Of a stretch of DNA of 64,000 bases, positions 2,316-39,131 are shown in pieces. The notes under the pieces were generated by a model that was not told where the DNA came from, made no database searches, and saw only the letters and a list, made by a program, of their open reading frames with translations. This DNA is from an uncultured bacterium (lineage in GTDB: Bacteria > Patescibacteriota > Patescibacteriia > Magasanikbacterales > UBA922), in assembly GCA_937861125.1 (NCBI GenBank), contig CALMAY010000038.1, positions 27,942-91,941 on the forward strand, read 5' to 3'. The translations under genes were made by a program, and so were the position numbers. Every line of letters begins with the position of its first letter. Positions within the stretch are counted from its first letter, which is position 1.

Positions 2316-2821
2316 ATCGTATAGAGATAGAGTGTCGGTTGCTTCTCCCGTTTGATCACCTCTGTTGGTACCCACTGTGGGAGTGGCCAAACATAGGAGA
2401 GTACTATACTGCCAGGTTTGAGCTCTTTTTTCAACTTCTCCATAAGTTTGGGAAACATCTCGGGCATGAGGAAAAAATAGACGTGTGTGGTGTCAGAGAG
2501 ATCGGTGTGCCAGAGATTTTTGTATCTGATCTGTACTCGACTGCGTGCAGGTGAAAACAGTCGTCGTATGTGTGCGATGATGTAGGGGAGGAGAGAGATC
2601 TCTAGTCCTGTGGCACGAGCACCTCGCTCTGCGGCAGCGATAGTGAGTCGTCCGTCACCACAACCGATATCACAAAAGACAGAATCTTTGTTTAGTTTTA
2701 GTGCGTCAATAATTGCTGATACATCATCTTTGCGTGTTGGTACCCATGGCGCGCCCTTGTATCCAGCATAGGCGAAGGTGCCAAAGATAGCGAGGAGGAT
2801 GGTAATGGTAAAAAGTTCCAT
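2312..2821 (-). CDS. Class I SAM-dependent methyltransferase with an N-terminal transmembrane helix.
   Basis: DIGCGDGRL glycine-rich SAM-binding motif; hydrophobic N-terminus. Confidence 0.6.
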   Translation of the reverse strand: MELFTITILLAIFGTFAYAGYKGAPWVPTRKDDVSAIIDALKLNKDSVFCDIGCGDGRLTIAAAERGARATGLEISLLPYIIAHIRRLFSPARSRVQIRYKNLWHTDLSDTTHVYFFLMPEMFPKLMEKLKKELKPGSIVLSYVWPLPQWVPTEVIKREKQPTLYLYTI

Positions 2822-2824
2822 ATA

Positions 2825-3673: not shown

Positions 3674-3736
3674 AGGAGGGGGTTACTATAGTCTACATCA
3701 TAACAAAAAAAAGACCTCATGTATATGAGATCTTTT

Positions 3737-3811
3737 TGGTAGCGCCAAGGGGAATCGAACCCCTGTTCTCAGGATGAAAACCTAATGTCCTAACCACTAG
3801 ACGATGGCGCC
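3737..3811 (-). tRNA. tRNA-Glu (anticodon TTC).
   Basis: Cloverleaf folds by hand: acceptor GGCGCCA, D arm GTC/GAC, anticodon stem TTAGG/CCTGA, loop TTTTCAT, T arm CAGGGGTTCGATTCCCCTT, 3' CCA encoded. Confidence 0.9.
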
Positions 3812-3818
3812 ATGTGCA

Positions 3819-4064
3819 TTATTCAAAAATGCGTCTGTATAATTTTTCTTTTTCACTACTGTTGGTTTTGAGCTGATACTCTCTTTTTCGTGCAAGCGTT
3901 CCTGATACGTATGCTTCGTAGTAGACGAGTTGGTATGGAATTTTTGAACGAATTGATTTGGTTTTACCACTATTGTGTTCCACAAGTCTTTTTCGTAGGT
4001 CTTCAGTGTATCCGATATAGGTGGTTTTGTCTATAGTGGATTGTAAAACGTATGTATAAAACAT
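3819..4064 (-). CDS. GIY-YIG nuclease-domain protein, 81 aa, URI/COG2827-like.
   Basis: YTYVLQS...YIGYTEDLRKRLVEHN matches the GIY-YIG catalytic core. Lies between a complete tRNA-Glu and a duplicated tRNA-Glu 5' half. Confidence 0.8.
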   Translation of the reverse strand: MFYTYVLQSTIDKTTYIGYTEDLRKRLVEHNSGKTKSIRSKIPYQLVYYEAYVSGTLARKREYQLKTNSSEKEKLYRRIFE

Positions 4065-4105
4065 AGTCTTGTCAAGGATGCCACCCTACGGGTGGTCACC
4101 CGCGA

Positions 4106-4144
4106 GGGTGAAAAACCTAATGTCCTAACCACTAGACGATGGCG
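4106..4144 (-). pseudogene. Partial duplicate of tRNA-Glu (5' half through the anticodon loop).
   Basis: 39 nt identical to 3776-3814 (gaaaacctaatgtcctaaccactagacgatggcgccatg) with one extra A. Continues into two GC hairpins (CCACCC-TAC-GGGTGG, TCACCC-GCGA-GGGTGA) instead of a T arm. Confidence 0.7.
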
Positions 4145-4147
4145 CCA

Positions 4148-4413
4148 TGAGTTGAATTGTGAAAACAGTGACAGTATAACTGGTTTTTGGTCGTTCGTCA
4201 ACCCCCTTGACAGATATAGAGATATCCTGTATTCTATCCTCATAACCACAGACAGTAGCTTCCGCCCAAAGCGGATTAAATACGCTACCGAGGTGAATCT
4301 ACTCTCCCTATACATAGGGGATTTGGTCGAAGATTTATCGTTTTACTGTGGTTTTGCCACGGTTTTTTATTTCCCTGTATTTCAGGCAAATAGACCGTTG
4401 TTAAATACTTTCT
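4148..4413 (+). promoter_or_regulatory. Untranslated region upstream of rplJ; possible L10 autoregulatory leader.
   Basis: About 265 nt of non-coding sequence sits directly upstream of rplJ, as in L10-leader operons. Structure not verified. Confidence 0.25.
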
Positions 4414-4938
4414 ATGGCAAAAACACGTGCACAAAAAGAACAAGCAGCAGTGGTGCTCGAACAAACCATGAAAAAAGCCAAAGGCATTGTCTTTGTCAAT
4501 TACCAAGGTTTGACGATTCCACAGACTGATGAGTTGCGTAAAGCATGTCGTGAAAACGACGCGGTGTTTATCGCAAGTAAAAAGACATTGGTGCGTATGG
4601 CACTTGCCAACATTGGCAGTACTGTCGACACCAAATCTTTTGATGGTTCTGTGGCTGTGATTGCAGGTATGAGTGATGAAGTTACTGCGGCTAAAATTGC
4701 AGGTGACTTCGCCAAAAAGAATGACAAACTTGTCTTCTTTGGTGGTGTCCTCGAAGGATCACTTATCGACGCACAGCAGGCAAAAGCACTCGCAGCTCTT
4801 CCAAGTAAGCAACAGCTTCTTGGTCAGCTGGTTGGAACATTGAACGCTCCAGTATCTGGATTTGTCAACGTTCTCGCTGGCAACATCCGTGGATTGGTCA
4901 CAGTCCTCGATGCAGTCAAGAGTCAGAAAGCAGCATAA
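4414..4938 (+). CDS. rplJ: 50S ribosomal protein L10.
   Basis: Typical L10 sequence; immediately followed by L7/L12. Confidence 0.95.
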   Translation: MAKTRAQKEQAAVVLEQTMKKAKGIVFVNYQGLTIPQTDELRKACRENDAVFIASKKTLVRMALANIGSTVDTKSFDGSVAVIAGMSDEVTAAKIAGDFAKKNDKLVFFGGVLEGSLIDAQQAKALAALPSKQQLLGQLVGTLNAPVSGFVNVLAGNIRGLVTVLDAVKSQKAA

Positions 4939-4980
4939 CTTGTTTACTTTTCAAATTATTAACTTGTAATTCAAAAATAT

Positions 4981-5376
4981 ATGTCAGACGTAGTCGTACC
5001 AGAGAAGTTTGCTTCTCTTGTCTCTGAAATCGAAAAGATGTCAGTACTTGATCTCTCAGAGCTCGTAAAAGTGCTTGAAGAGAAATTTGGTGTATCAGCA
5101 GCAGCTCCAGCCATGATGATGGCAGCTCCAGCAGCAGGTGCAGCAGCTCCAGCAGCAGAAGAGAAATCTTCATTTACTGTTGAGCTCACTGAAGCAGGTG
5201 ACAACAAAATCAATGTCATCAAAGCAGTAAAAGAAATCACAGGTCTTGGACTTGCTGATGCAAAAGCTCTCGTTGATGGTGCTCCAAAAGCAGTTAAAGA
5301 AGGCGTAGCAAAAGCAGACGCTGAAGAAATGAAAAAGAAAATCGAAGAAGCAGGTGGTAAAGTCACCTTGAAATAA
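4981..5376 (+). CDS. rplL: 50S ribosomal protein L7/L12.
   Basis: N-terminal dimerisation helix, Ala/Pro hinge ([15 protein letters not shown]) and C-terminal domain ([22 protein letters not shown]). Confidence 0.95.
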
Positions 5377-5398
5377 CACGCAGTGTTATTTCAAGAGT

Positions 5399-5443
5399 GA
5401 TCCTGAGCGAAATCCCGCCGTGGCGGGATGTAGTCGAAGGATC
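5399..5443 (+). other. Nested GC-rich hairpin after rplL with no U-tract.
   Basis: Outer stem GATCCT/AGGATC, inner stem ATCCCGCC-GTG-GGCGGGAT. Shares CTGAGCG, GTCGAAG and ATCCCG motifs with the tsaD element. Confidence 0.35.
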
Positions 5444-5461
5444 TCTCATTCTCTAGATAAT

Positions 5462-5493
5462 AAAAACCCTGTACCTATGGTACAGGGTTTTTG
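5462..5493 (+). terminator. Rho-independent terminator of rplJL.
   Basis: AAAAACCCTGTACC-TAT-GGTACAGGGTTTTT: perfect 9-bp stem with flanking A and T tracts. Confidence 0.8.
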
Positions 5494-5519
5494 TATCGTC
5501 ATGAGCCTTGTGAGCATTC

Positions 5520-5555
5520 TAAGCCTCCTGAGCATTTTAATCCTTTTAAGCCTTA
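5520..5555. repeat. Short dispersed intergenic motif, copy 1.
   Basis: TAAGCCTCCTGAGCATTTTAATCCTTTTAAGCCTTA; about 27/32 identical to 20413-20444. Confidence 0.45.
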
Positions 5556-7745
5556 TAATGAAAAAGAGTACACCACATTGGAATCCAAAATGTACACAGT
5601 TTTGTTTTTTTCATCCACACTCATGCCTGTTGGATTTTTCCACTCTGCTGCGGTATATTGTTTGACCAGTTTTCCTGTCTTGTCTAGTACAACAATACGT
5701 TTATTGGTTGGCTCTAAAATGTAGAGATAGTTGACGTCAGTGTAGGTAAATAGTTCTGTTGGATTGCTCAATGCTGGGTCAAGTCCGGTAATAGAAAATG
5801 CTTCTTCAACTCCTGCAACAAATTTTTTGATTTCTCCTGATGCCGTGAGTATATAGACATCACCATCAATAGCAATCGAGACTGCGTCAGCTAGTGTAGA
5901 TCCTTCGCGCTGTGATTGGATCCATGGCGTGCCTTTGTCATAGCCTGTGGCAGTTGGGTTATGTTTATAGATTTGATTATTTTTTGCGTCTAGTATGTAG
6001 GCTCTGCGGTTGTATAGCGCGATGTCATTTGGTGCTGCATCTGTTGTCGGATAGACGATGGTTTTTTGTGAAATGGTTTGGTTGGTTGGATCAAGTGTGC
6101 CGATACTTTGTGCATCTCCGAGGAAAACAATTGTATCATTTTCTTTTGGTGTGTTGGCACGTAAGAGTGGGGGGAGTGAAGAATGATTGCGTGTATCCAC
6201 TGACCCGCCTACTATTGGTAATACATAATGTGTTGAGTCATTGGTACCATATGCAATGAGGGTATTTTGGATACGAGCGAGGCGGGTAGGGGTGGCTGGT
6301 TTTTCTGCTGTACTTGCAATGGTAGCAAGTACAGTAGGGGAAACGATAGTAATATTACGGACTTGATCCAAAAGAATGGCGATAGAATTGAGAAAAGATT
6401 GGCGTGTCTGTCTTTGTTCGTCTGTATCAGTAGGAAGTTCTTTTGCCTTTGTTTGTGCTGTTGTCAGCAAATTGAGCGCACCGCTTCGATCGTTGTATGT
6501 AAACTGTGCTTGTGCTTTTTCATAGGTACTTTGGATGTCACGTATCGAGAGGGTGTATGCTTGTTTTTGTGCTACTTGTTTTTTGTTGGCACTATAGATG
6601 ACTATGCTACTGATAAATATAGTAATAGCGAGTATGGTCCCAATAAGCAGTACTTTACTGATAAGTGGAAGATGGACAAATGATCGTTTTTTCCCCTCAA
6701 TGCTTCTCGTGAGTGTGTGAATAATTTCAGTTCGTCTATTCTTTTGATTTGTAATCAAAAACCAGACGATGACAATAAGTTCTTTGATACCTACCAAGAT
6801 TCGTTCTAATAGCGCCAGCAACATGCTTGAGGCGGTCAAAAGGACGGTACCAATACCACGTAACAAAGAGACGATAAAGGGAACCGTTGTTGTATCTGGT
6901 TCTACTGAGAGTTGTGTGTTTGTTGGTGATATTGGCTGTTGCGGATGAAATGAAAAGAGACTTTTTGCACTTTGAAGCAGTGATGGGTTGAGTGTTTCTG
7001 CTGTGTTGTCCTGTGTTTCTACAAGTTCATTAATAGAGTCTCCTTTTTGTTTGAGATGAGGTGGAATTTTTCCTGTTTTTGGTAAATCGTGTACAGAGAT
7101 AATTTTGGATACAATACCACCAAATGAGATGTCACTACGTAGGTTGGCTAGGACACGCTGGAGATGGGTAGATCCGCTCATTACATCGCGAGCAGTAATA
7201 ATTTTTTGGATTCTATCTTCTGAAAAATAACGCCCAACAGATGGTGTACCAACAAAAAAGTAATCGTGCATGTGTATACTCCCAGAGAGGACAGAAGAAA
7301 ATAGTTGTGTGGGTGTATCATCTGCTTCATTGATAATGGAGAGGTGTTTGTATTCTTGTTTGTGTTGGTAAAATACGTATGCAATCGGAGCGCCGTGATA
7401 CGATAATAAGATAGTACCACCAATCATCACACCTACAACCGCATCTACCGTTCCATCTGAAAGCATGTGGTGACTTTTACGGTTCATCTGTTCAAGGATG
7501 TGTTCAAATAGTATTTCAGGGTTATCAGTATCTTCACTGTAGTATCGGGATTCTATATCATCGATACATTGTTGTAATTCTTCAATTTGTTCTGTGGTTC
7601 CACCCGTAATTTCAATCAATGCAAATAATGAACCTTTTGGTATTTCTGTAGCAGTGGATGGTTCACTAATATGAAGCAAAACATGAGACGTTTTTCGATT
7701 GCGTCCTTCAACAAAAAATTCTTGAATTTGTGGAAACCCAGACAT
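5553..7745 (-). CDS. Large membrane-anchored hypothetical protein, 730 aa. Possible PP2C-like N-terminal domain, a central transmembrane segment, and C-terminal beta-propeller-like repeats.
   Basis: Long ORF with hydrophobic helices near residues 300 and 360. Repeated YILD/VYIL motifs at the C-terminus. The PP2C-like call (DAVVGVMIGG...HGAPIAYVF) is weak. Confidence 0.55.
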   Translation of the reverse strand: MSGFPQIQEFFVEGRNRKTSHVLLHISEPSTATEIPKGSLFALIEITGGTTEQIEELQQCIDDIESRYYSEDTDNPEILFEHILEQMNRKSHHMLSDGTVDAVVGVMIGGTILLSYHGAPIAYVFYQHKQEYKHLSIINEADDTPTQLFSSVLSGSIHMHDYFFVGTPSVGRYFSEDRIQKIITARDVMSGSTHLQRVLANLRSDISFGGIVSKIISVHDLPKTGKIPPHLKQKGDSINELVETQDNTAETLNPSLLQSAKSLFSFHPQQPISPTNTQLSVEPDTTTVPFIVSLLRGIGTVLLTASSMLLALLERILVGIKELIVIVWFLITNQKNRRTEIIHTLTRSIEGKKRSFVHLPLISKVLLIGTILAITIFISSIVIYSANKKQVAQKQAYTLSIRDIQSTYEKAQAQFTYNDRSGALNLLTTAQTKAKELPTDTDEQRQTRQSFLNSIAILLDQVRNITIVSPTVLATIASTAEKPATPTRLARIQNTLIAYGTNDSTHYVLPIVGGSVDTRNHSSLPPLLRANTPKENDTIVFLGDAQSIGTLDPTNQTISQKTIVYPTTDAAPNDIALYNRRAYILDAKNNQIYKHNPTATGYDKGTPWIQSQREGSTLADAVSIAIDGDVYILTASGEIKKFVAGVEEAFSITGLDPALSNPTELFTYTDVNYLYILEPTNKRIVVLDKTGKLVKQYTAAEWKNPTGMSVDEKNKTVYILDSNVVYSFSL

Positions 7746-7814
7746 AGGGGGTATAGTTGCCTTTTTGGATACTTCCTAGTATACTGCAAGTATACAAAAA
7801 AAACAACCGAATAT

Positions 7815-8417
7815 ATGCTTGAACACTTATTTGGTTCAAAGACTCGCGCAGATATGCTGCGTATTTTCTTTCGTGAACCACAAAAAGCGCTGTACGTACG
7901 TGAATTGACACGACTTTTGGATACACAAATCAATGCGGTTCGTCGCGAAATTGAATCGCTGACGTCGCTGGGTTTGTTGATTGAAAAAGAAGCAGATTTG
8001 ACCGCAGCGCTTGCAGCTGGTGAAGCGGGAGCGGCACTGCGGAAGTATTATGTTGTCAACATGGATCATATTCTTTACAACGAGCTTCGTGCGTTGATTT
8101 TACGTTCTCAAATTGTGGATGAACAGGCGCTGCTGAAAGAGTTGCGAGAAAAAGGGGGTACGATTGATATACTTCTTATTACTGGTGTTTTTACGGGAGA
8201 CAAACATGCACCAGTGGATATGTTGATTGTTGGAGATATCAAGCCACAGCGAGTTGCTAAAAGTATTGAAAATTATGAAGCAAGGTTTGGGTCAAGTATA
8301 CGCTATACGACGATGACAAGACAGGAGTTTGTAGATAGACGTCATATGATGGACAAATTCTTGTTTTCGATTCTTGAGGCAGAACATATTTTTATTGTCA
8401 AAGAACTTGATGTCTAG
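7815..8417 (+). CDS. Winged-HTH domain protein (ArsR/PadR-like N-terminus) with an uncharacterised C-terminal domain.
   Basis: LRIFFREPQKALYVRELTRLLDTQINAVRREIESLTSLGLL resembles a wHTH. Start placed at the internal Met to avoid overlap with the divergent gene. Confidence 0.45.
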   Translation: MLEHLFGSKTRADMLRIFFREPQKALYVRELTRLLDTQINAVRREIESLTSLGLLIEKEADLTAALAAGEAGAALRKYYVVNMDHILYNELRALILRSQIVDEQALLKELREKGGTIDILLITGVFTGDKHAPVDMLIVGDIKPQRVAKSIENYEARFGSSIRYTTMTRQEFVDRRHMMDKFLFSILEAEHIFIVKELDV

Positions 8418-17935: not shown

Positions 17936-18748
17936 TTATAAAAATAAAAGCAAACTTCCGGCCATCAACATCATTCCAGAAATGAGCCCATAAAGAACAA
18001 TGTGGTGTTCACCAAATTCTTCGGCTGCAGGGATAAGTTCGTCGAGTGAAATATATACCATAATTCCTGCAACACCGGCAAAAATAATACCAAACAGACT
18101 TTCACTAAAAATGTTGCGGAGCAAAAAGAATCCAATAGCCGCGCCAACTGGTTCAGAGAGTCCAGACAAAAAAGACCAAGTAAATGCTTGTACTCGGCTT
18201 TTGGTCGCATAGTATATTGGGATAGCGACAGCAATTCCTTCTGGAATATTGTGAATCGCAATAGCGACGGCAATACTGATACCAAGAAATGGATCGGCAA
18301 TAGCTGCCATAAATGTTGCAAGACCTTCTGGAAAATTGTGAATACCAATAGCAATCGCAGAAAACATGCCCATTCGGTAGAGGTGGTGTGTTTTTGGTTT
18401 TGTGGGATGAGTACCAAGTTCGGTAATCGTATTGAGCTCATCAGGGGTATCTGAGATAGGAACGAGTTTATCAATCAATGCTGCAAGTGCAATCCCACCA
18501 AAAAAAGCAAGAGTTGTGTACAGGTATCCAAGTGCATCGCCATGTACTTCGACGAGAGATATACGTGCTTTTTGAAATATTTCAATAAATGAAACATACA
18601 ACATGACCCCAGCAGAGAAACCAAGTGAAAGGGCGAGAAAGCGATGGCTAAATTGTTTTGAGTATATCGCAATAAGACTTCCGATACCCGTAGAGAGACC
18701 AGCAAGTGCTGTAAGTCCAAAGGCAGTAAGAACGGCATGTGTATCCAT
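17936..18748 (-). CDS. zupT: ZIP-family zinc transporter.
   Basis: Eight transmembrane helices with HNFPEG / HNIPEG metal-binding motifs. Confidence 0.9.
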   Translation of the reverse strand: MDTHAVLTAFGLTALAGLSTGIGSLIAIYSKQFSHRFLALSLGFSAGVMLYVSFIEIFQKARISLVEVHGDALGYLYTTLAFFGGIALAALIDKLVPISDTPDELNTITELGTHPTKPKTHHLYRMGMFSAIAIGIHNFPEGLATFMAAIADPFLGISIAVAIAIHNIPEGIAVAIPIYYATKSRVQAFTWSFLSGLSEPVGAAIGFFLLRNIFSESLFGIIFAGVAGIMVYISLDELIPAAEEFGEHHIVLYGLISGMMLMAGSLLLFL

Positions 18749-22499: not shown

Positions 22500-23390
22500 A
22501 TGAGTTTTATTGGACCTGTCATTTTATTTCTTGTTTCGGCCAGTTTGGTTGGTTTTGTCTTGTCCAAAAAATGGCGTCAGGTGTCATTGCTTAATGTTGA
22601 TTCGATTCCAGAAGTCAAAGAACAGCGCAAGAAAGAGGAAATCTTGGCCAAGCGTATTGAATTACAGGCGCAGTCTCTTCAGGAGAGAATCAAAAAACAA
22701 TTGATACCAGTTGTTGAATCATATCAACAATTTCGTGTGGCAATGCGTAGTTATATCTCTCGCATTGAGAAAGATATGGTTCGTTCAAAGCGAAAAGCTG
22801 CTAAAGCTGCAGCTGCTGCAGTAGATCCTACTGAACTTGCACAGGTTCTTGAGGGTGCACATCGCTTTGCTTCTGCAAAAGAGTGGCAAAAAGCAGAAGA
22901 GGCATATATTGCAATCTTGCGTACATCACCAAAAAATATAGAAGCCTATCGTGGTTTGGCCAAGGTGTACTATGAGCAGGATCAGCTCAAAGAGGCCAAA
23001 GAGACATATCAGTTCGTGCTGCATCTGGAACCGCAAGATGATGGCACTTATGTTATGTTGGGAGACATTGCTATGGAAGAGAAAAAATACGAAGAGGCAG
23101 TAGAAGCATATCAGCAGGCTGTTTTGATCAATCCACAACTTTCTCCTCGTTTTTTCAAGCTTTCTGAAGCGTTTCTTGCGTTAGCTCAGCCACAGACAGC
23201 TCTTGAGGCGATAAAGCAGGCTGTGTCGCTTGAGCCACAAAATCCAAAGTATCTTGACAGTTTGGTAGAAACTGCTATACTATGCCGCGAAGCCGATGTT
23301 GCTACTGAGGCACTGCAACAGCTTCGAATGGTCAACCCAGAAAATCAAAAGTTAGTTCTTTTTAAAGAAAAAATTTCAGCATTAGTATAG
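22500..23390 (+). CDS. TPR-repeat protein with an N-terminal transmembrane anchor.
   Basis: N-terminal hydrophobic helix; repeated 34-residue A/Y/L pattern (AYRGLAKVYYEQDQLKEAKETYQ...). Confidence 0.65.
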   Translation: MSFIGPVILFLVSASLVGFVLSKKWRQVSLLNVDSIPEVKEQRKKEEILAKRIELQAQSLQERIKKQLIPVVESYQQFRVAMRSYISRIEKDMVRSKRKAAKAAAAAVDPTELAQVLEGAHRFASAKEWQKAEEAYIAILRTSPKNIEAYRGLAKVYYEQDQLKEAKETYQFVLHLEPQDDGTYVMLGDIAMEEKKYEEAVEAYQQAVLINPQLSPRFFKLSEAFLALAQPQTALEAIKQAVSLEPQNPKYLDSLVETAILCREADVATEALQQLRMVNPENQKLVLFKEKISALV

Positions 23391-23397
23391 TTTTAAT

Positions 23398-23473
23398 GCC
23401 ATCTTAGCTCAGCTGGTAGAGCAACGGTTTTGTAAACCGTGGGTCGCGAGTTCGATTCTCGCAGATGGCTCCA
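23398..23473 (+). tRNA. tRNA-Thr (anticodon TGT).
   Basis: Perfect acceptor GCCATCT/AGATGGC, anticodon stem ACGGT/ACCGT, loop TTTGTAA, 3' CCA encoded. Confidence 0.9.
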
Positions 23474-23482
23474 AAGTAAATA

Positions 23483-23565
23483 GGGTCGGTTCTAGAGCGG
23501 TCAAATAGGGCAGACTGTAAATCTGCTGGCGTACGCCTTCGCAGGTTCGAATCCTGCCCGGCCCA
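23483..23565 (+). tRNA. tRNA-Tyr (anticodon GTA) with long variable arm.
   Basis: Acceptor GGGTCGG/CCGGCCC, anticodon arm GCAGA-CTGTAAA-TCTGC, long variable arm. Closely follows the E. coli tRNA-Tyr pattern. Confidence 0.88.
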
Positions 23566-23571
23566 CAAATA

Positions 23572-23603
23572 AACAACCTTTCATAAGGTTGTTTTGTTTT
23601 TTT
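23572..23603 (+). terminator. Rho-independent terminator after the tRNA-Thr/tRNA-Tyr pair.
   Basis: AACAACCTT-tcat-AAGGTTGTT followed by a T-rich tract. Confidence 0.8.
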
Positions 23604-23706
23604 ATCTTGTATCTTTTTTTGTTTTGTTCTACACTATAGGGGTGAGGGGATATTATTCATAATATGTGTCTATATGTGCAAAACAATGTGTAAAGGGAAA
23701 TCATGT

Positions 23707-24015
23707 ATGCTCGCCTGCGCAGCTCAATGGCTGGTGCTTGTAGGAGCGATCAACTGGGGACTTATAGGAGTTGGTTATTTTGTAGGAGGTAGTGATTGGA
23801 ATGTGGTACGTATGATTTTTGGAAGTATTGAGTGGCTTGAGGCATTGGTATATATTGTTGTTGGTGCAAGTGCTGTGGTGGCTATCGTTGGCTGTAAATG
23901 TGGCATGTGCAAAGGCGGCGCATGTGCAGGTAGTGCGTGCTGTAAATCAGCAGAAGGTGAAAAAGAAGAAGAAGGCTGTTGTGGTGGCTCATGTGGCTGT
24001 GAAGAAAAAAAATAA
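23707..24015 (+). CDS. DUF378 small membrane protein with a Cys-rich metallothionein-like C-terminal tail.
   Basis: AINWGLIGVGYF...NVVRMIFG matches the DUF378 core. The tail CKCGMCKGGACAGSACC...GCCGGSCGC has 13 Cys in about 40 aa. Alternative upstream starts at 23674 or 23686 would add MCKTMCKGKSC. Confidence 0.6.
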   Translation: MLACAAQWLVLVGAINWGLIGVGYFVGGSDWNVVRMIFGSIEWLEALVYIVVGASAVVAIVGCKCGMCKGGACAGSACCKSAEGEKEEEGCCGGSCGCEEKK

Positions 24016-24029
24016 GAGATATTTTAAAG

Positions 24030-24062
24030 TAAAAAACTCGCACAGCTAGTGCGAGTTTTTTA
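24030..24062. terminator. Bidirectional terminator between the DUF378 gene and bcp.
   Basis: AAAAAACTCGCAC-agcta-GTGCGAGTTTTTT. Confidence 0.8.
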
Positions 24063-24512
24063 TTATGAGAGTGCTTGGATATCTTTGAGTACTTCTGTCG
24101 GGTGCTCTTCTGCTTTGACTTTGGTGTAATGTTTAAGAATATTACCTGATTCATCAATGAGAAATGATTCTCGATTGATACCATGAAAAAGTCTTCCGTA
24201 TAAACTTTTTTCTTTCCATACACCGTATGCAGCGACGATAGTTCGGTCTGTATCAGCGAGGAGGGGGAAGTTGAGATGGAATTTCTCTGCAAATTTTTTG
24301 TGTGACGCAACATCATCACAGCTAACACCGATAACCTGCACCCCTTTACCCTGTAGATCATTGAGACTGTCTCTGAATCCGCAGGCTTCTTTGGTGCATC
24401 CAGGTGTGTCGTCCTTTGGGTAGAAGTAGAGCAATACTTTCTTTCCATTGTAGTCACTGAGTGAATGGAGGGTCCCATCTTGGTCTGGGAGGGTAAAATC
24501 AGGGGCTTTCAT
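24063..24512 (-). CDS. bcp: Thiol peroxidase / peroxiredoxin Bcp.
   Basis: FYPKDDTPGCTKEAC active-site motif. Start placed at MKAPDFTLPDQDG. Confidence 0.9.
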   Translation of the reverse strand: MKAPDFTLPDQDGTLHSLSDYNGKKVLLYFYPKDDTPGCTKEACGFRDSLNDLQGKGVQVIGVSCDDVASHKKFAEKFHLNFPLLADTDRTIVAAYGVWKEKSLYGRLFHGINRESFLIDESGNILKHYTKVKAEEHPTEVLKDIQALS

Positions 24513-24557
24513 AAAGAGGAATGATTGTGTATGATATGGATTGATTGTAACAAACAT

Positions 24558-25418
24558 ATGCCAGAATTACCAGAGGTAGAAACCGTTCGTCGTGATTTAC
24601 AAAAACATATTGTACACAAGACAGTTGACCGTCTAACTTTGGGTAACACAAAAGTGATTCGTCCTACCCATGCGCGATTAAAAAAAGTACTGGTGGGAAA
24701 TAGTATTGCTGACGTACAAAGAGTGGGAAAATTATTGATAGTACAGCTCCGGAGCGGAGATGAGTCTATACTCATACATCTCAAGATGACGGGGCAGTTG
24801 ATCTATCGTGACCAAAAGATGGTGATTGCTGGTGGACATTCGCTATCAGAATCTATCCAATCACTTCCAAATAAACATACTCGTGCGGTGATTCATTTTA
24901 CTGATGGCTCTGAGTTGTTTTTCAATGACATGCGATTGTTTGCCTATCTCGCACTTGCAGATGAGAAAGAATTGATTCGAGTAAAACAGATGTATGGTAT
25001 TGAGCCAGGTACAGTTGCATTTACCAAAGAAGCATTTCAACATATTTTTGTACGACGAACTGCTCCGGTAAAAGCAGTGTTACTCAATCAAACATTGATT
25101 GCAGGGGTGGGAAATATTTATGCAGACGAGGCTTGTTTCCTTGCACATATTCTTCCAATGCGTCGATCCAATACATTGACCAAAAAAGAGATTGATCAGT
25201 TATGGAAGGCGACAGATAAGGTGATTCGGTTGGGGATAGAAAAACGTGGTACCACATTCAACCATTTTGTCGATGGTGATGGAAACAAGGGTGGATTTCT
25301 CCCATTTTTGCGTGTCTATGGCCGAGCAGGAAAACCGTGTAAAAAATGCAAAACACCAATAGTAAAAACATACTCGGCTGGACGTGGGACACACTATTGC
25401 CCACAGTGTCAAAAGTGA
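24558..25418 (+). CDS. mutM: Formamidopyrimidine-DNA glycosylase.
   Basis: N-terminal MPELPEVE and C-terminal zinc finger CKKC...CPQC. Confidence 0.92.
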   Translation: MPELPEVETVRRDLQKHIVHKTVDRLTLGNTKVIRPTHARLKKVLVGNSIADVQRVGKLLIVQLRSGDESILIHLKMTGQLIYRDQKMVIAGGHSLSESIQSLPNKHTRAVIHFTDGSELFFNDMRLFAYLALADEKELIRVKQMYGIEPGTVAFTKEAFQHIFVRRTAPVKAVLLNQTLIAGVGNIYADEACFLAHILPMRRSNTLTKKEIDQLWKATDKVIRLGIEKRGTTFNHFVDGDGNKGGFLPFLRVYGRAGKPCKKCKTPIVKTYSAGRGTHYCPQCQK

Positions 25419-25429
25419 GAAAGAAGCGG

Positions 25430-25458
25430 TTGACAAAACGACGCATTTTTTGTATACT
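25430..25458 (+). promoter_or_regulatory. Sigma-70-type promoter for tRNA-Thr(GGT).
   Basis: TTGACA, 17-nt spacer, TATACT; about 18 nt upstream of the tRNA 5' end. Confidence 0.6.
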
Positions 25459-25476
25459 CTCGTACACAAAATACAT

Positions 25477-25549
25477 GCCGTTGTAGCTCAGTTGGTAGAG
25501 CGTGTCCATGGTAAGGACAAGGTCTCGGGTTCGATCCCCGACAATGGCT
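25477..25549 (+). tRNA. tRNA-Thr (anticodon GGT).
   Basis: Acceptor GCCGTTG/CAATGGC, anticodon arm TGTCC-ATGGTAA-GGACA. CCA not encoded. Confidence 0.88.
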
Positions 25550-25624
25550 CAAGTAAGCCCCGCTCTTCGTATCCGAAAGTGGGGCTTTCACTTATGTCTT
25601 TGAGCGTGCTATACTCTTATCTGT

Positions 25625-26905
25625 ATGTCTTCTCAAAAAGTACAATCACAACCATCATTTTTTACCTCCCTCTCTGTAGGGTGGTTTTTGGCTACACGTG
25701 ATTTGGCTCGGGCGAGTCGTTGGACGACATTGCTTATCATCTCTGTGATGACACTGACTTTTCTCAATCTTGTGGTGGTGTCTGGAATTTTGGTTGGACT
25801 TATCCAGGGGTCGGTTGATGCAAATAAACGACAGTACACGAGTGATATTTTTATCACAGAACCATTGAGCAAGGTGTATATTGAAGATAGTCGGCTGTTG
25901 GCAAGTACTGCTCGGGCGACAGAGGGTGTGATTGGTGTGACTGAACGATATCTCAGTAGTGCCAAAATCGAGGCGAATTATAAACGACAAGTGCAGGCGG
26001 ATGAGACGCGAGATACAGCCAATGCTTCGGTAGCCGGTATTTCTCCTGTGGATGAAGATATCGTGACAGGGCTGTCGTCTGAAATTGCAGAAGGTGAATA
26101 TCTCGAACCAGGTGAGACTGGATCTATTTTGATGGGTGCAGATTTGTTGTATAAATATAATCAAATTACCTCACCTGATATTCAGGTGCTTGATGAAGTT
26201 ACTATTGGTGACACTGTTCGGGTTACTATTGGAGACACAGTCAATGAGTTTGTTGTGAAAGGTATTTTGGATAGCAAACTGAGTGAAATTGACTTGCGTA
26301 TTTTTATGAATGAGGGTGAGTTACGTCAACTGATTAATCGACGTGCGACCAATGCGGATGAGATTGCGATCATGGTGGAGCCTGGCACTGATCTCGTACC
26401 AATTTTGGACACACTGCGGTCACTCTCTGGTCCTGATGGAGCACTCGTTCGTACTGCAGAAGAGGCTCAACCAAAATTCCTTCAGGATATCACTGCAACG
26501 TTTGCTATTTTGGGAAATGCGATTGGGTCTATCGGGTTGGCAGTCGCTTCGATCACTATTTTCATTGTGATTTTTGTCAACGCGATTACACGCCGTCGAT
26601 TTATTGGTATTCTCAAGGGTATCGGTATTACCTCCACTGCGATTCAGTGGTCATATATGTTTCAATCGTTATTTTATGCAGGGGCGGGTATTGCGATTGG
26701 TATGTGTCTCGTGTTTGGAGTACTCAAACCATTTTTTGCCGAGCATCCAATTGATTTCCCGTTCAGTGATGGTATCTTGGTTGCAACAATGGGTGGGACA
26801 CTGCTTCGTGCAGGATTGCTTTTGATTGCGACAGTGATTGCAGGATTTTTACCAGCAAAAATTGTTGTGCGTCAAAACACGCTCGATGCTATTTTGGGGA
26901 GATAA
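25625..26905 (+). CDS. ABC transporter permease, FtsX/MacB-like, with a large extracytoplasmic domain between TM1 and TM2.
   Basis: N-terminal transmembrane helix, roughly 250-aa loop, three C-terminal helices. Stop overlaps the ATPase start. Confidence 0.8.
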   Translation: MSSQKVQSQPSFFTSLSVGWFLATRDLARASRWTTLLIISVMTLTFLNLVVVSGILVGLIQGSVDANKRQYTSDIFITEPLSKVYIEDSRLLASTARATEGVIGVTERYLSSAKIEANYKRQVQADETRDTANASVAGISPVDEDIVTGLSSEIAEGEYLEPGETGSILMGADLLYKYNQITSPDIQVLDEVTIGDTVRVTIGDTVNEFVVKGILDSKLSEIDLRIFMNEGELRQLINRRATNADEIAIMVEPGTDLVPILDTLRSLSGPDGALVRTAEEAQPKFLQDITATFAILGNAIGSIGLAVASITIFIVIFVNAITRRRFIGILKGIGITSTAIQWSYMFQSLFYAGAGIAIGMCLVFGVLKPFFAEHPIDFPFSDGILVATMGGTLLRAGLLLIATVIAGFLPAKIVVRQNTLDAILGR

Positions 26906-27604: not shown

Positions 27605-28462
27605 ATGCCTATCATTGGTGCTCATGTCTCCGCAGCTGGCGGACTTCATAACTGTTTCAAAAACGCTTCAGATATCGGTGCTCAAGCGTTGCAGATTTTT
27701 GTTTCTTCACCGCGTGCATTTCAGGTCAAGGTGCCAACAGAAGAGATTGTCTCACAATTCAAACAAGCACAAAAAGAGACAAAGCTTGGTCCCGTCTTTG
27801 CACATGCAGCGTATTTGGTTAATCTCGCATCAGCGGATAAAAAAACACAAAACGCTGGGATACAAAGTTTGGTGGCACATCTCTCAATTTGCGAAACACT
27901 TGGGATTGTTGGGCTTGTTTTTCATCTGGGGTCCATTGCTAAAGGTGGAACAAAAGAAGAGGGAATTGCACGTACCGCAGAAGCAATGAACAAGGTACTT
28001 CAAAAAGTACCAGGGAAAAGTTTTTTGATTATGGAAAATTCCTCTGGTGGGGGAGGTAAGCTCGGGAATACACCAGAAGAAATCGGTGAGATGTTTCGTC
28101 TCGCCAACAATTCGCGTATTAAAGTGTGTCTGGATACTGCACATGCGTTTGCGGCGAACGAACTCGGTGAGAGTGTGACGGACAAAACAGTGGATTCGTT
28201 TGTCTCTCGTTGTGACACATCATTTGGGTGGGAGAATGTCGTCTGTATTCACTTCAATGATTCCAAAGTCGCTGCCGGAACATTTACTGATCGTCATGAA
28301 AACATTGGCGAGGGGTTGATTGGGACCAAAGGGTTAAAAGCAATTGCGTTGCATCCAAAAATGAAGAATCTTCCGCTTGTGATGGAGGTGCCTGGATTTG
28401 GAGACGATGGGTCAGATATGGAAAATATACAACGATTGAAAAACATATGTGGAATCAAATAA
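27605..28462 (+). CDS. nfo: Endonuclease IV (AP endonuclease family 2).
   Basis: IGAHVSAAGG N-terminus and TIM-barrel metal-ligand pattern (HxxY, E..G, H.ND). Confidence 0.9.
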   Translation: MPIIGAHVSAAGGLHNCFKNASDIGAQALQIFVSSPRAFQVKVPTEEIVSQFKQAQKETKLGPVFAHAAYLVNLASADKKTQNAGIQSLVAHLSICETLGIVGLVFHLGSIAKGGTKEEGIARTAEAMNKVLQKVPGKSFLIMENSSGGGGKLGNTPEEIGEMFRLANNSRIKVCLDTAHAFAANELGESVTDKTVDSFVSRCDTSFGWENVVCIHFNDSKVAAGTFTDRHENIGEGLIGTKGLKAIALHPKMKNLPLVMEVPGFGDDGSDMENIQRLKNICGIK

Positions 28463-36503: not shown

Positions 36504-36941
36504 ATGAAACAGTTTGCATGTTTATTCTTGCTTGGCGGTGTATTGTTAGCTTCACCTGCACTTGCGGTTGATGAAACATCGTCCTCTACAACACCAGTAA
36601 CTGAAACAGCATCTGGTTTGGAATGTATTCAAGATGCAATTGAAACAAGAGATACTGCACTTATTGATGCATTGAGTTCATATCACGCTGCTGCAAAAAC
36701 AGCATTAGAGACACGTATCGCTGAATTAAAATCTGCGTGGGAGCAACCAAAAGGGACATATCGTAAAGCTGATATTAAAGATGTGTGGACTGAGTATCGA
36801 ATAGATCTTCGAAATGCACGAAAAGAGTTTAAATTAGATAAAAAAGTAGCGTGGGATGTATTTAAAAAGGCTAAAGCTGCATGTAAGGGTGTGCAGGTTT
36901 CGGATGATACTGGCAATTCAGCCGCAGATACAACATTATAA
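36504..36941 (+). CDS. Secreted hypothetical protein with signal peptide.
   Basis: MKQFACLFLLGGVLLASPALA signal peptide followed by a helical Lys/Glu-rich domain. Confidence 0.5.
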   Translation: MKQFACLFLLGGVLLASPALAVDETSSSTTPVTETASGLECIQDAIETRDTALIDALSSYHAAAKTALETRIAELKSAWEQPKGTYRKADIKDVWTEYRIDLRNARKEFKLDKKVAWDVFKKAKAACKGVQVSDDTGNSAADTTL

Positions 36942-37023
36942 TATTTGTACTAAAAGACATCCCTGTAATTCTGGGATGTCTTTTAATTTTATGGTATACT
37001 ATCTGTACTATTGTCCATGTATT

Positions 37024-38379
37024 ATGTCACAAAAAAAAGCATATATTGTTGCAGTCGATATGGGGTACGGTCATCAGCGTGCTGTTCATCCGTTGTTTGA
37101 CATCTCTCGTGCTCCAAAAGGATGGGATCATGATTCTGCGATGATTATCTGTGCAAATAAATATCCAGGTATACCTGAGATTGATTTTAAACGATGGAAT
37201 GGAAGCCAGGGGGTGTATGAATTGATTTCACGCATGAAACGTCTGCCAATTGTTGGTGATTGGATTTTTGGTGCTATGGATTATTTTCAGCGGATTGAGG
37301 TGTTTTATCCCAAACGTGATCTGAGTAAGCCAACTATACAGTTGAGTCAGATTTATAACATGATCAAAAAAGGGTGGGGAAGACACTTGATTGATGAGCT
37401 GAATCGTGACCCACTTCCACTTATTACCTCTTTTTTTATCCCAGCATTTTTTGCGGAAGAGCATGGGTACAAGGGTGAGATATATTGTCTGTGTACCGAT
37501 ACGGATGTTTCTCGTGCTTGGGCACCGCTGCATCCGCAAAAGAGTCGTATCACTTATTTAGCTCCAAATAAGCGTGTTCGAGAACGTCTCAAGCTTTATG
37601 GTGTACGTCCAGAAAAGATTTTTATTACAGGCTTTCCGTTGCCAAAAGAAAATATTGGTTCACCTGATACTGTTAAAACACTCAAGACATCACTTGGGTG
37701 CCGTATAGGCAATCTCGATCCACATGGTCGGTACCAAAAGAAATACCAGCAAATGCTTCAGTTTTACCTTGGTTCGCCATTTTGTGATTTGCGGGCCAAG
37801 CATCCGTTTACTATTACCTTTGCAGTAGGAGGTGCGGGGGCACAGCGAGAAGTGGGAATCGAGATTTTGCAAAGTTTGCGGACGCACATTGATGCTGGTG
37901 CTGTGAGGCTTAATCTTGTTGCCGGATCTCGCGCTGATGTGTTTAGTTTTTATGAAGCAGAAATTAAACGTTTGGGCTTGGATCATCGTCATGATCAAAC
38001 AGTTCGTATTATTTATGATGAAGATAAGTTCCGTTATTTTCAAAAATTTGATGAAGCATTACTCACCACAGACGTGCTGTGGACCAAACCAAGTGAATTG
38101 TCATTTTACGCTGGGCTAGGACTTCCGATCATTATTGCCCCAACGATCGGTTCTCAAGAAGAGTATAATAAAGCTTGGTTACACGCAATTGGTGCTGGGT
38201 TTGAGCAAAACGATTCACGATATACTCATGAGTGGTTATTTGATTGGCTAGAGAGCGGTTGGCTCGCAGAGGCTGCGATGAGTGGATTTTTACATGCACC
38301 GAGAAATGGGGCGTATCATATTGCGGATATTGTACTCAACGGCAAGAAGAGTGAAATTGAAGATGTGCATTTGTTGTAG
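37024..38379 (+). CDS. GT-B glycosyltransferase, MGDG-synthase/UgtP-like (GT28-like N-terminus).
   Basis: AYIVAVDMGYGHQRA resembles the G-x-GH-x-x-A motif at the N-terminus of GT28/MGDG-synthase-type enzymes. Confidence 0.5.
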   Translation: MSQKKAYIVAVDMGYGHQRAVHPLFDISRAPKGWDHDSAMIICANKYPGIPEIDFKRWNGSQGVYELISRMKRLPIVGDWIFGAMDYFQRIEVFYPKRDLSKPTIQLSQIYNMIKKGWGRHLIDELNRDPLPLITSFFIPAFFAEEHGYKGEIYCLCTDTDVSRAWAPLHPQKSRITYLAPNKRVRERLKLYGVRPEKIFITGFPLPKENIGSPDTVKTLKTSLGCRIGNLDPHGRYQKKYQQMLQFYLGSPFCDLRAKHPFTITFAVGGAGAQREVGIEILQSLRTHIDAGAVRLNLVAGSRADVFSFYEAEIKRLGLDHRHDQTVRIIYDEDKFRYFQKFDEALLTTDVLWTKPSELSFYAGLGLPIIIAPTIGSQEEYNKAWLHAIGAGFEQNDSRYTHEWLFDWLESGWLAEAAMSGFLHAPRNGAYHIADIVLNGKKSEIEDVHLL

Positions 38380-38381
38380 AT

Positions 38382-39131
38382 ATGACTTCTTTCGCACTTA
38401 TTCCATTTGCATTTCTCTCTGGTATCCTCATGTTTTTGGCACCTTGTTCATTACCACTTGTTCCAGGGTATTTGGCATTTTTGTCTGGCAATACTGATTT
38501 GCGTATGTGGAATGAACGGACTGTTCGATGGCGGATGGTGCGTCAAGCATGTTTTGTCTCGCTTGGATTTGGTGGTGTATTTATTTTTTTGGGTGTTTTG
38601 TTTGGGCTTGGTGGTGTCGTATTATTGCCATATCGAGAGGTGCTGAGTCGCGTTGGTGGTGTACTAATTATGTTGTTTGGTCTTGCACTGCTGGGAGTGT
38701 TTTCTCTGCCATCATTTTCTTTTGTTTCACGTCTAGTTGCATACAAACAGATACATCCAAACACACCAGGTGCTGCTATATTATTTGGAGGTATTTTGGC
38801 GCTCGGATGGTCGCCATGTGTCGGGCCTATTTTGGGGACTATTTTGTTGCTGGCTGCATCTAGCGCAACGGTTGTTTCTGGCGGCTTCCTTTTGGCTGTT
38901 TTTTCTCTTGGGTTTAGTGTGCCGTTTATTCTCACTGCATTTGGCGCTGGGCATATATCACAATGGTTACAGAGATTCAGCAGTGTACAGAGGGTGCTTA
39001 CGGTTATCGGTGGCATGAGTTTGATCGTCATGGGGTATCTCATGGCTACGAACATGATGGGAGTGTGGAATGGTTTTTTTTATGGATTGTTTGATTTTAT
39101 GTCGTACGATTCATTATTACGTTTTTATTAG
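38382..39131 (+). CDS. ccdA: Cytochrome c-type biogenesis / thiol-disulfide transporter, CcdA/DsbD-core family.
   Basis: APCSLPLVPGYL (first Cys in TM1) and WSPCVGPILG (second Cys); six transmembrane helices. Confidence 0.8.
   Translation: MTSFALIPFAFLSGILMFLAPCSLPLVPGYLAFLSGNTDLRMWNERTVRWRMVRQACFVSLGFGGVFIFLGVLFGLGGVVLLPYREVLSRVGGVLIMLFGLALLGVFSLPSFSFVSRLVAYKQIHPNTPGAAILFGGILALGWSPCVGPILGTILLLAASSATVVSGGFLLAVFSLGFSVPFILTAFGAGHISQWLQRFSSVQRVLTVIGGMSLIVMGYLMATNMMGVWNGFFYGLFDFMSYDSLLRFY

Follow-up and report, generated by a model that had tools for sequence, protein, structure and literature searches.

The window, i.e., the whole 64,000-nucleotide stretch of DNA analysed here, which comes from an uncultured bacterium of candidate-phyla (Patescibacteria-like) type, encodes a small two-helix membrane protein of the DUF378/YuzA family with cysteine-rich ends, which we interpret, at a probability of about one half, as carrying a putative zinc clasp made from both ends, together with additional metallothionein-like cysteines, and as being the product of a gene that would stand alone. 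Of the readings compared below, metal binding suits the Cys-rich tail best. The gene and its surroundings comprise the following features:

23398 to 23566, plus strand: tRNA-Thr(TGT) and tRNA-Tyr(GTA), upstream of the DUF378 gene and followed by a terminator-like hairpin at 23571-23594
23622 to 23661, plus strand: conserved upstream block, holding a promoter-like TCTACA-17-TATTAT (23628-23656) and GGGGTGAGGGG
23674 to 24015, plus strand: DUF378/YuzA-family gene, 113 aa, recognised by Pfam match, AF2 helices, dN/dS and recurrence in assemblies
23704 to 23706, plus strand: codon of C11, the predicted N-terminal ligand position, 16 residues before N27 of NWG
23893 to 23910, plus strand: juxtamembrane C-K-C-G-M-C (C74, C76, C79), directly after TM2, with the signature C-x-C-x2-C
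23911 to 24012, plus strand: distal polycysteine Gly/Lys-rich extension, with C84, C89, C90, an acidic spacer and then CCGGSCGC
24028 to 24064, no strand assigned: bidirectional intrinsic-terminator hairpin between DUF378 and bcp, -20.9 kcal/mol, z -8.1, with flanking A-run and T-run
24063 to 24557, minus strand: bcp/PrxQ-type thioredoxin-dependent peroxiredoxin (AhpC-TSA E 3.7e-42; NCBIfam PRK09437 167.1 bits against a cutoff of 140)
24558 to 25418, plus strand: mutM/fpg formamidopyrimidine-DNA glycosylase (Fapy_DNA_glyco, H2TH and zf-FPG; TIGR00577 249.6 bits against a cutoff of 203.3)

Residues 14-72 of the protein match PF04070 (DUF378) with 40.9 bits against a gathering cutoff of 25 (E 1.9e-10), DUF378 being the only Pfam domain found in it, and the family motifs NWGL and Y-x2-VG are present, with N27, W28, G29, L30, Y60 and G64 invariant in our alignment A2. 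AF2 places helices at residues 9-37 (12-38 in a second run), 44-49 and 53-73 and leaves the tail disordered, with a mean pLDDT of 58.6 in a run with 22 sequences and of 61.2 in one with 42, and values below 50 at both ends; no solved structure was found among the relatives. The layout is that of an N-terminal Cys segment (1-15), TM1 (~16-37), a loop helix (44-49), TM2 (53-73) and a tail (74-113), and it confirms the DUF378 gene with a two-helix core that a first-pass annotation of this DNA had recognised. The same annotation had counted 13 cysteines in a tail of about 40 residues, where the actual number is 10 (C74, C76, C79, C84, C89, C90, C102, C103, C107 and C109, in 40 residues); with four more at the N-terminus (C2, C6, C11 and C15) and none inside the helices, the protein has 14 in total. 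Background Cys content in the window's ORFs is 1.05%, every other 40-residue stretch has at most five, and the chance of finding at least 10 in 40 is P ~1e-11 per stretch.

The Cys-rich tail is not an artefact, because its dN/dS is only 0.043 at a dS of ~1 in the comparison with a 90% identical relative (L001), the corresponding values being 0.017 for the core and 0.18 for the N-terminus. Codon comparison with this relative shows every cysteine to be under purifying selection: all 14 are retained, and at five of these positions TGT and TGC are exchanged. An origin as a frameshifted or non-coding stretch of low complexity, or as the precursor of a Cys-rich RiPP (SCIFF-like), would suit the low-complexity composition and the antisense ORF that overlaps the DUF378 ORF, but it has a negligible probability: selection is strong and accompanied by an in-frame indel, the same protein or tail, identical in sequence, is found in many independent assemblies (NCBI, ENA, JGI, Logan), and neither an NCBIfam SCIFF match (the six-Cys-in-45 model of SCIFF/ranthipeptides) nor an adjacent radical-SAM maturase gene was found. 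The frameshift artefact, which the first-pass annotation had itself allowed for, is excluded by this recurrence and by purifying selection. Its suggestion that an upstream start would add N-terminal cysteines is borne out by support for ATG 23674: L001 and two further close relatives (L088 and L087) retain both the reading frame and the four N-terminal Cys, the ~10 nt immediately 5' of this ATG (23662-23672) diverge across the three, with an indel, and the third ATG is absent from the relatives P0002 and P0004. Gene callers differ on the start, giving forms of 113, 109 or 102 aa, the last of which would lose C11.

DUF378 proteins range from 60 to 110 aa and form a broad family, with 2941 cluster representatives at 50% identity matching DUF378/YuzA. 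The classical members (Firmicutes, Proteobacteria and archaea) share with the window protein the two-helix core, G-x-[IL]-N-W-G-L-x-G, the loop N-[VL]-V and Y-x2-V-G, but their own N-termini are short and of MKxLDY type and their own tails basic and Cys-free, whereas the window protein and its Patescibacteria relatives have ligand-bearing ends and a longer DWNVV loop, and the 14 cysteines set the window protein apart from the classical forms. At least two tail Cys occur in 37 of 84 GTDB loci, and these 37 come almost entirely from Patescibacteria; in Firmicutes, Proteobacteria and archaea most loci have none, and the Pfam core is likewise devoid of them. Among the 182 top homologues, the tail holds at least two Cys in 151, at least four in 65 and at least eight in 11, while in a gut-dominated metagenome contrast set Cys tails occur in 3/85 among the matches listed, which are mainly gut Firmicutes DUF378, the best of them 43% identical to the window protein. 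Across the homologues compared, Cys-rich ends are the rule in a large Patescibacteria DUF378 subfamily; the initial view that such tails are foreign to DUF378 is correct for the Pfam core and the classical members, but not for this subfamily. No functional study of DUF378/YuzA was found in the literature searched, where true mentions were expression tables and most matches concerned other families (DUF3780, DUF3781 and DUF3787); no literature was found on PF04070, that found on YuzA was unrelated, and nothing relevant was found on cysteine-rich proteins in Patescibacteria.

The commonest motif after TM2 in the subfamily is C-x-C-x2-C, which aligns with the H-x3-C-x2-C of His-type relatives, and at least 90% of the sequences in alignment A2 share C76 and C79. 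Proteins with C-x-C-x2-C tails have a Cys 16 residues before NWG (NWG-16) in 53 of 77 cases, the other 24 missing it as called, partly through start-codon uncertainty; 29 of the 33 with H-x3-C-x2-C tails have a His at NWG-13; and the 73 with ligand-free tails have the His in three cases and the Cys in four. Presence or absence of ligands on the N and C sides is associated with an odds ratio of 20, and the Cys numbers of the two ends correlate (rho 0.74), a covariation that is not phylogenetically independent (9 co-located ligand changes against 4.3 expected on a noisy NJ tree). C11 is also invariant in alignment A5, whose sequences were chosen for having it. We define the subfamily by C-x-C-x2-C or H-x3-C-x2-C after TM2 together with Cys at NWG-16 or His at NWG-13, and the window protein belongs to it through C74, C76, C79 and C11. 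As mean K+R is ~1.9 at the N end and ~2.2 at the start of the tail against 0.2 in the loop, we infer from the positive-inside rule that both ends are probably cytoplasmic.

Since the end ligands covary, the alignments indicate a four-ligand site (Cys4 or His2Cys2) built from both cytoplasmic ends, for which the metal is most likely zinc. An exchange of Cys and His from one homologue to another is a typical feature of mononuclear Zn sites. In the mechanism that we propose, the gene product is a small DUF378/YuzA-family hairpin in the membrane, both of its ends would lie in the cytoplasm, and in the Patescibacteria subfamily these ends would provide one ligand before TM1 and three after TM2 (candidates in the window protein being C11, and C74, C76 and C79) for a mononuclear site at the inner membrane face; the metal, probably Zn2+, would clasp the two hairpin ends together, or else neighbouring subunits. 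Here we infer the identity of the metal, the meeting of the ends and the physiological role.

Ends of the opposite topology, i.e., extracytoplasmic and disulfide-bonded, could be substrates or partners of the thiol-disulfide machinery of the envelope, of DsbA-like and CcdA-like type. The divergent neighbour is indeed a DsbA-like CPFC protein in 9-12 of the 37 Cys-rich loci, a TM protein that conserves a CxxC comes next in 14 loci, and a DsbD_TM/CcdA-like protein is encoded in the window at 38382-39131; in the one CPR clade concerned, the DsbA-like neighbour could mean disulfide chemistry instead of a metal site. However, the block with the DsbA-like gene is confined to that clade, includes rpoD and dnaG, may reflect inherited synteny and is absent from the window. 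K/R are moreover strongly concentrated at the two ends and missing from the loop, and His-for-Cys covariation makes no sense for disulfides, so that we hold such a role to be highly improbable. A 235-aa conserved neighbour was considered as a thioredoxin-like protein and rejected for want of a Pfam match.

The proposed zinc site has a counterpart in the ZAS anti-sigma factors, where HX3CX2C plus an upstream Cys/His is an established zinc motif (C11/H37/C41/C44 in RsrA) and most sites are redox-insensitive (PMC3177212); the site of ChrR is Zn(Cys)2(His)2 (PMC6432622). His-type DUF378 relatives, with an N-terminal His and H-x3-C-x2-C, reproduce this ligand arrangement, and the window type has Cys for His, but DUF378 has no anti-sigma domain or homology and its site is split between the hairpin ends. 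For the window protein, which has C-x-C-x2-C and, in place of a cognate ECF sigma gene, tRNAs and bcp as neighbours, the likeness is one of ligand pattern only. By analogy with RsrA and ChrR, the juxtamembrane Cys4/His2Cys2 site might serve as a zinc-thiolate redox switch, binding Zn when reduced and releasing it on thiol oxidation with a change of conformation or partner binding, which would partly rescue the idea of a redox role, as a sensor and not a buffer. The ligand pattern identical to that of ZAS proteins, the many closely spaced extra Cys that could form disulfides, the adjacency of bcp in three close relatives and the position of DUF378 just downstream of rpoD in 14 CPR genomes would all fit; with neither an anti-sigma domain nor a partner gene, with redox-insensitivity prevailing among ZAS sites and with a bcp linkage that is lineage-local, we nevertheless consider a switch unlikely. 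Distinctly unlikely is an iron-sulfur cluster, or a rubredoxin-like Fe, that would serve membrane-associated electron transfer at the termini: it could draw on four Cys ligands and further CxxC/CC motifs, and a DUF378 gene of Methanosarcina barkeri is strongly induced under extracellular electron uptake conditions (PMC12195604), but a site that occurs in both a Cys4 and a His2Cys2 form would require homologues to carry clusters of different types, the sampled Methanosarcinales DUF378 (L047) has no Cys ends, and the loci show no linked partner for Fe-S assembly or redox reactions.

In addition to the zinc clasp, the window protein and its close relatives have about 10 extra Cys (C2, C6 and C15; C84 to C109), of which C84-C109 would sit in a disordered Gly/Lys/Glu-rich tail, and which may form a membrane-tethered, metallothionein-like thiolate cluster region that binds or buffers a soft metal (Zn or Cu) at the membrane. 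The distal extension is metallothionein-like in composition only. It resembles SmtA/BmtA and MymT in being short, Cys-dense (25% Cys), Gly/Lys-rich and probably disordered as an apo-peptide, with clusters of 4-6 Cys and a spacer between them, but differs in being covalently tethered to a membrane hairpin and in that its metal binding is putative. No metallothionein model is matched, the tail alone returning no family at E<=10 and NCBIfam giving no match at E<=0.1, and the extension itself has neither a Pfam nor an NCBIfam match. The arrangement of its cysteines varies among the close relatives P0002-P0004, with Cys richness retained. The mercury transporters MerF, MerE and MerT are also small (<120 aa) two- or three-helix proteins, with cytoplasmic-side Cys pairs that pass on a thiophilic metal, but the window protein matches only DUF378 in Pfam (no Mer family at E<=0.01), has no Cys in its helices and has no mer operon nearby, merA and merR being absent from the annotated 60 kb.

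The DUF378 gene would form a unit by itself, with a conserved promoter and a terminator of its own, and lies next to bcp and mutM in a local lineage only. The upstream block is near-invariant in the window, L001, L088 and L087, despite a different upstream gene in L087; neither a second copy in the window nor a significant fold was found for it. An AT-rich 7-2-7 palindrome on the -10 box (ATATTAT-TC-ATAATAT), Fur/PerR-like in appearance, was rejected, its right arm not being conserved in L001 and L088. The tRNA pair upstream of the gene is kept in L001 and L088, and an Rfam scan of 23300-25700 returned, apart from tRNAs, only leader look-alikes that score below threshold and fall on the terminator, whose stem shows compensatory changes in L001. 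A horizontally acquired islet, i.e., a tRNA-flanked segment, was also considered and rejected, as no GC anomaly or other compositional sign was found.

On the other side of the terminator, the bcp product carries TPGCTKEAC, with the peroxidatic and resolving Cys of TPGCTxxxC, and starts at 24557 or, more likely, at M16 (24512), the L001 gene call being the shorter form; the mutM product has the PELPEVE N-terminus, H2TH and the C-terminal zinc finger. The first-pass annotation was right about both identities, for which PRK09437 and TIGR00577 score above their cutoffs, and about the divergent pairing of the two genes and the bidirectional terminator common to DUF378 and bcp, but the coordinated oxidative-stress module that it drew from them finds no support. 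DUF378 is convergent with bcp, and bcp divergent from mutM, and the genes therefore form three transcription units. A module in which the tail acts as a membrane redox or metal buffer is very unlikely, even though the three genes lie within 1.75 kb, the arrangement is kept in L001 and its bcp part in L087, and thiol or oxidative chemistry is common to all three products: the genes are not co-oriented, a strong terminator separates DUF378 from bcp, no motif common to the DUF378 and bcp promoter regions was found, and the linkage is not conserved across divergent genomes. The gene for bcp lies next to DUF378 in three of four close relatives (the window, L001 and L087), the adjacency being lost in L088 with a core 88% identical. 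Within 3 kb of 35 more distant Cys-rich loci, bcp is never found and mutM once, and the 21 Cys-rich loci outside the rpoD block have no recurrent neighbour family, redox or other (ZnuA, VIT1 and CNNM once each). The survey of Cys-tailed homologues and their neighbours that had been proposed as a check, with common tails never linked to redox genes speaking against the module, went against it on the first count, the tails being common, and only partly on the second, linkage to bcp and mutM being lineage-local and not nil. An "oxidative-stress island" is thus unsupported, the position beside bcp and mutM looks incidental, and this adjacency is no basis for annotating the DUF378 protein as an oxidative-stress factor.

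These results suggest that the end ligands define a Patescibacteria-specific elaboration of DUF378, of which the polycysteine tail is an extreme form, and the covarying ligands provide a concrete and cheaply testable hypothesis, i.e., a zinc site bridging the hairpin ends. If the tail binds metal, it would represent an unusual membrane-tethered metallothionein in minimal-genome bacteria. More tentatively, Patescibacteria may have made of this ancient two-helix protein a membrane-tethered zinc/thiolate device, whether metal buffer, metal sensor or redox switch; its parts would be a Cys4/His2Cys2 clasp of both cytoplasmic ends and, in lineages such as the present one, also the metallothionein-like polycysteine tail, and it would work at the membrane of organisms without most of the canonical metal- and redox-homeostasis systems. 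If true, DUF378 would gain its first functional handle, and bacterial metallothioneins their first membrane-anchored example.

The window has a GC content of 42%, and its region is also present in the ENA metagenome contigs ERZ724549 NODE_11 (107.6 kb) and ERZ724532 NODE_4 (266.7 kb). The closest named genomes for its DUF378 gene are Candidatus Nomurabacteria and other Patescibacteria, at no more than 52% identity. Matches above the Pfam threshold and the NCBIfam equivalog cutoffs show that the first-pass annotation had the gene anatomy (DUF378, bcp, mutM) right, its cysteine count excepted.

Features of the DUF378 locus
23398-23566: tRNA-Thr and tRNA-Tyr
23674-24015, + strand: DUF378 ORF, 113 aa, above the Pfam DUF378 threshold over residues 14-72
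24028-24064: strong hairpin, -20.9 kcal/mol, z -8.1
24063-24557, - strand: bcp, passing the NCBIfam equivalog cutoff
24558-25418, + strand: mutM, passing the NCBIfam equivalog cutoff
25477: tRNA-Thr

The Cys-rich tail is real, although it holds 10 Cys in 40 residues and not the 13 first counted; the whole protein has 14, including four at the N-terminus. The share of Cys across the window ORFs is 1.05%, with at most 5 in any other 40-residue stretch, so that the density of the tail is far beyond chance. The identical protein or tail is recorded in NCBI, ENA, JGI and Logan assemblies. In the syntenic relative L001 (90% identical, synonymous divergence ~1), dN/dS is 0.017 for the core, 0.043 for the tail and 0.18 for residues 1-15; none of the 14 Cys is lost (five show TGT/TGC swaps), and the sole indel in the gene is in frame. 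This recurrence across assemblies, together with the low dN/dS and the in-frame indel, excludes a frameshift artefact. The suggested upstream start with additional N-terminal Cys is likewise borne out: a start at ATG 23674 is supported by conservation of frame and Cys in the relatives L001, L088 and L087, by divergence, with a 1-nt indel, of the ~10 nt just 5' of it, and by the lack of the third ATG in the homologues P0002 and P0004; gene callers differ on protein length (113, 109 or 102 aa).

Four relatives share, with no or almost no nucleotide change, a 40-nt block upstream of the gene (TTTGTTCTACACTATAGGGGTGAGGGGATATTATTCATAA) together with its first eight codons (23622-23697). Because L087 keeps this block despite a different upstream gene, and synonymous divergence is ~1 elsewhere in the gene, it suggests a promoter, operator or translation-initiation signal travelling with the gene and overlapping the coding start. 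In L087 (185-1248), an HTH/SocA_Panacea antitoxin-like gene and a 128-aa ORF replace the tRNAs and TPR gene upstream of DUF378; the flank is evidently often rearranged.

The distribution of Cys-rich ends was surveyed by word-index search, a scan of GTDB representative genomes and an exhaustive profile search. The first yielded 41 homologues, among them many that have Cys before TM1 and C-K-C-x-x-C-K after TM2. Among 84 non-redundant GTDB loci, 37 have at least 2 tail Cys, nearly all from Patescibacteria (Nomura-, Paceibacterota, Saccharibacteria, Peribacteria, Gracilibacteria, Magasanik-, Woese- and Daviesbacteria), and none of the Firmicutes, Proteobacteria or archaeal members in that scan does. 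The profile search gave 2941 cluster representatives; in the 182 top parsable sequences, tail Cys number at least 2 in 151, at least 4 in 65 and at least 8 in 11, and the window protein, with its 14 Cys, stands near the top, below the homologues P0178 (17 Cys) and P0095 (16). In contrast, only 3 of 85 DUF378 proteins among the matches listed for a gut-dominated metagenome sample have Cys tails. Thus, by these surveys, Cys-rich ends lie outside the Pfam core and constitute a trait shared lineage-wide within the candidate phyla radiation, of which the window gene is an extreme case; the view that such tails are foreign to DUF378 holds for the Pfam core and for Firmicutes, Proteobacteria and archaea, but not for Patescibacteria, where they are widespread. 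Patescibacteria-type Cys-rich DUF378 also occurs in MAGs titled 'uncultured Gammaproteobacteria' (L015, L031, L037, L038, L048 and L052), a label that looks wrong: RpoD of L015 is ~89% identical to that of the Paceibacterota genome L017. A literature search for DUF378 found true mentions only in two papers, on Methanosarcina barkeri MSBRM_3095 (in the context of steel corrosion, induced 24-fold in the presence of activated carbon and 11-fold in that of Geobacter; PMC12195604) and Xanthomonas oryzae PXO_RS16940 (2.5-fold higher in a response-regulator mutant whose tolerance of oxidative stress is altered; PMC7698356).

The proposal that DUF378, bcp and mutM form a coordinated oxidative-stress module is not supported by comparison. 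DUF378 and bcp are convergent and, as first noted, share a bidirectional terminator (the -20.9 kcal/mol hairpin, with compensatory changes in L001), and bcp and mutM are divergent; the three genes therefore form three transcription units. The convergent bcp neighbour is kept in L001 and, seen as a C-terminal fragment of Bcp, in L087 (70% identical), and lost in L088 (core 88% identical), where a gene of >1573 aa follows DUF378. In tblastn of 35 more distant Cys-rich loci, bcp was near none and mutM near only one (L023); measured against the refuting condition set with the first-pass annotation, Cys tails are common, and bcp is a neighbour only in close relatives. Around 21 Cys-rich loci that do not belong to the block described below, each Pfam family recurs in 3 neighbours at most, and none of those is redox-related. 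No compositional anomaly was found at the locus.

Several other genes of the window are recorded here. The longest bcp ORF begins at 24557, abutting the mutM ATG at 24558, and the L001 gene caller prefers an internal Met (24512 in the window), leaving the divergent pair at most 45 bp for two promoters with either start (24512-24558). An FtsX/ABC transporter pair downstream of mutM is followed, two genes from mutM, by an endonuclease IV-type AP endonuclease (AP_endonuc_2, 27605-28462), placing two base-excision-repair genes within 4 kb, in the same order in L001. A ZIP-family zinc/iron permease (17936-18748, - strand), also syntenic in L001, is encoded 5 kb upstream of the DUF378 gene, too far and with too many intervening genes to claim linkage. 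A DsbD_TM/CcdA-like membrane thiol-disulfide transporter (38382-39131), directly after a 507-aa DUF6938 protein (36856-39131 for the pair), shows that the organism has envelope thiol-redox machinery, ~14 kb from the DUF378 gene. This genome also encodes a second juxtamembrane Cys cluster: in a 228-aa protein without any Pfam match (62685-63371, - strand), the sole hydrophobic helix is directly preceded by the Cys-rich stretch SCLKRSCFGGCGC.

A different neighbourhood is common to 14 Paceibacteria-type genomes. In it, dnaG and rpoD are followed by an oppositely oriented gene for a DsbA-like CPFC protein, then by the Cys-rich DUF378 gene and a GT2 glycosyltransferase gene; the last member, a 235-aa protein anchored by a TM segment, matches nothing in Pfam and carries an invariant CxxC that mostly reads C[ST]EC.

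Location of the dnaG-rpoD-DUF378 block
~2000-8400 in each of L002, L006-L008, L010, L013, L015, L017-L019, L022, L030, L036 and L043

The block does not occur at loci whose DUF378 lacks Cys. It could hint at thiol chemistry; since it is limited to one clade, contains housekeeping genes and does not occur in the window, it is treated here as inherited synteny, of uncertain meaning.

The central pattern is covariation within the protein. When 261 parsed sequences were grouped by the motif immediately following TM2 and the residues close ahead of TM1 were compared (numbered from the Asn of the NWG motif, N27 in the window protein), tails with H-x3-C-x2-C (n=33) had His at -13 in 29 and Cys at -16 in none, tails with C-x-C-x2-C (n=77) had Cys at -16 in 53, and tails without ligands (n=73) had 3 His and 4 Cys at those positions. 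H-x3-C-x2-C aligns onto the window tail with its His in the C74 column and its two Cys in those of C76 and C79. Because tail motif tracks the -13/-16 residue and the columns align, one N-side and three C-side ligands are present, absent or switched in chemistry jointly, as Cys4 or His2Cys2. Having ligands on one side goes strongly with having them on the other (odds ratio 20, uncorrected). On a rough NJ tree, changes share a branch in 9 cases versus 4.3 expected, a suggestive but not decisive result. Exchange of Cys for His among homologues is typical of mononuclear zinc sites and hard to reconcile with disulfides or a single Fe-S cluster type. Basic residues average ~1.9 before TM1, 2.2 after TM2 and 0.2 in the loop, and by the positive-inside rule both ends would be cytoplasmic. 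ZAS anti-sigma factors bind zinc through an established motif, HX3CX2C plus a Cys or His upstream (PMC3177212), and PMC6432622 gives ChrR a Zn(Cys)2(His)2 site; the ligand logic is alike, but there is no homology to DUF378.

In the model proposed here, with metal, topology and physiological role as inferences, the window protein would fold as a two-helix hairpin, its cytoplasmic ends joined by a tetrahedral site (C11, C74, C76, C79) that most likely binds Zn. Some ten further thiols would extend this site in the lineage: C2, C6 and C15 at the N-terminus, and in the tail a proximal cluster (C84, C89, C90), an acidic spacer and a distal CCGGSCGC cluster. Cys order varies among the close relatives P0002, P0003 and P0004 while richness persists, and no family model matches the extension, for which disorder is predicted; these features fit a composition-driven, metallothionein-like metal-thiolate region that would be tethered to the membrane. 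The window gene thus represents a Cys-rich variant of the uncharacterised DUF378 family, within a large, apparently undescribed Patescibacteria subfamily whose proteins probably form a zinc site from both their ends.
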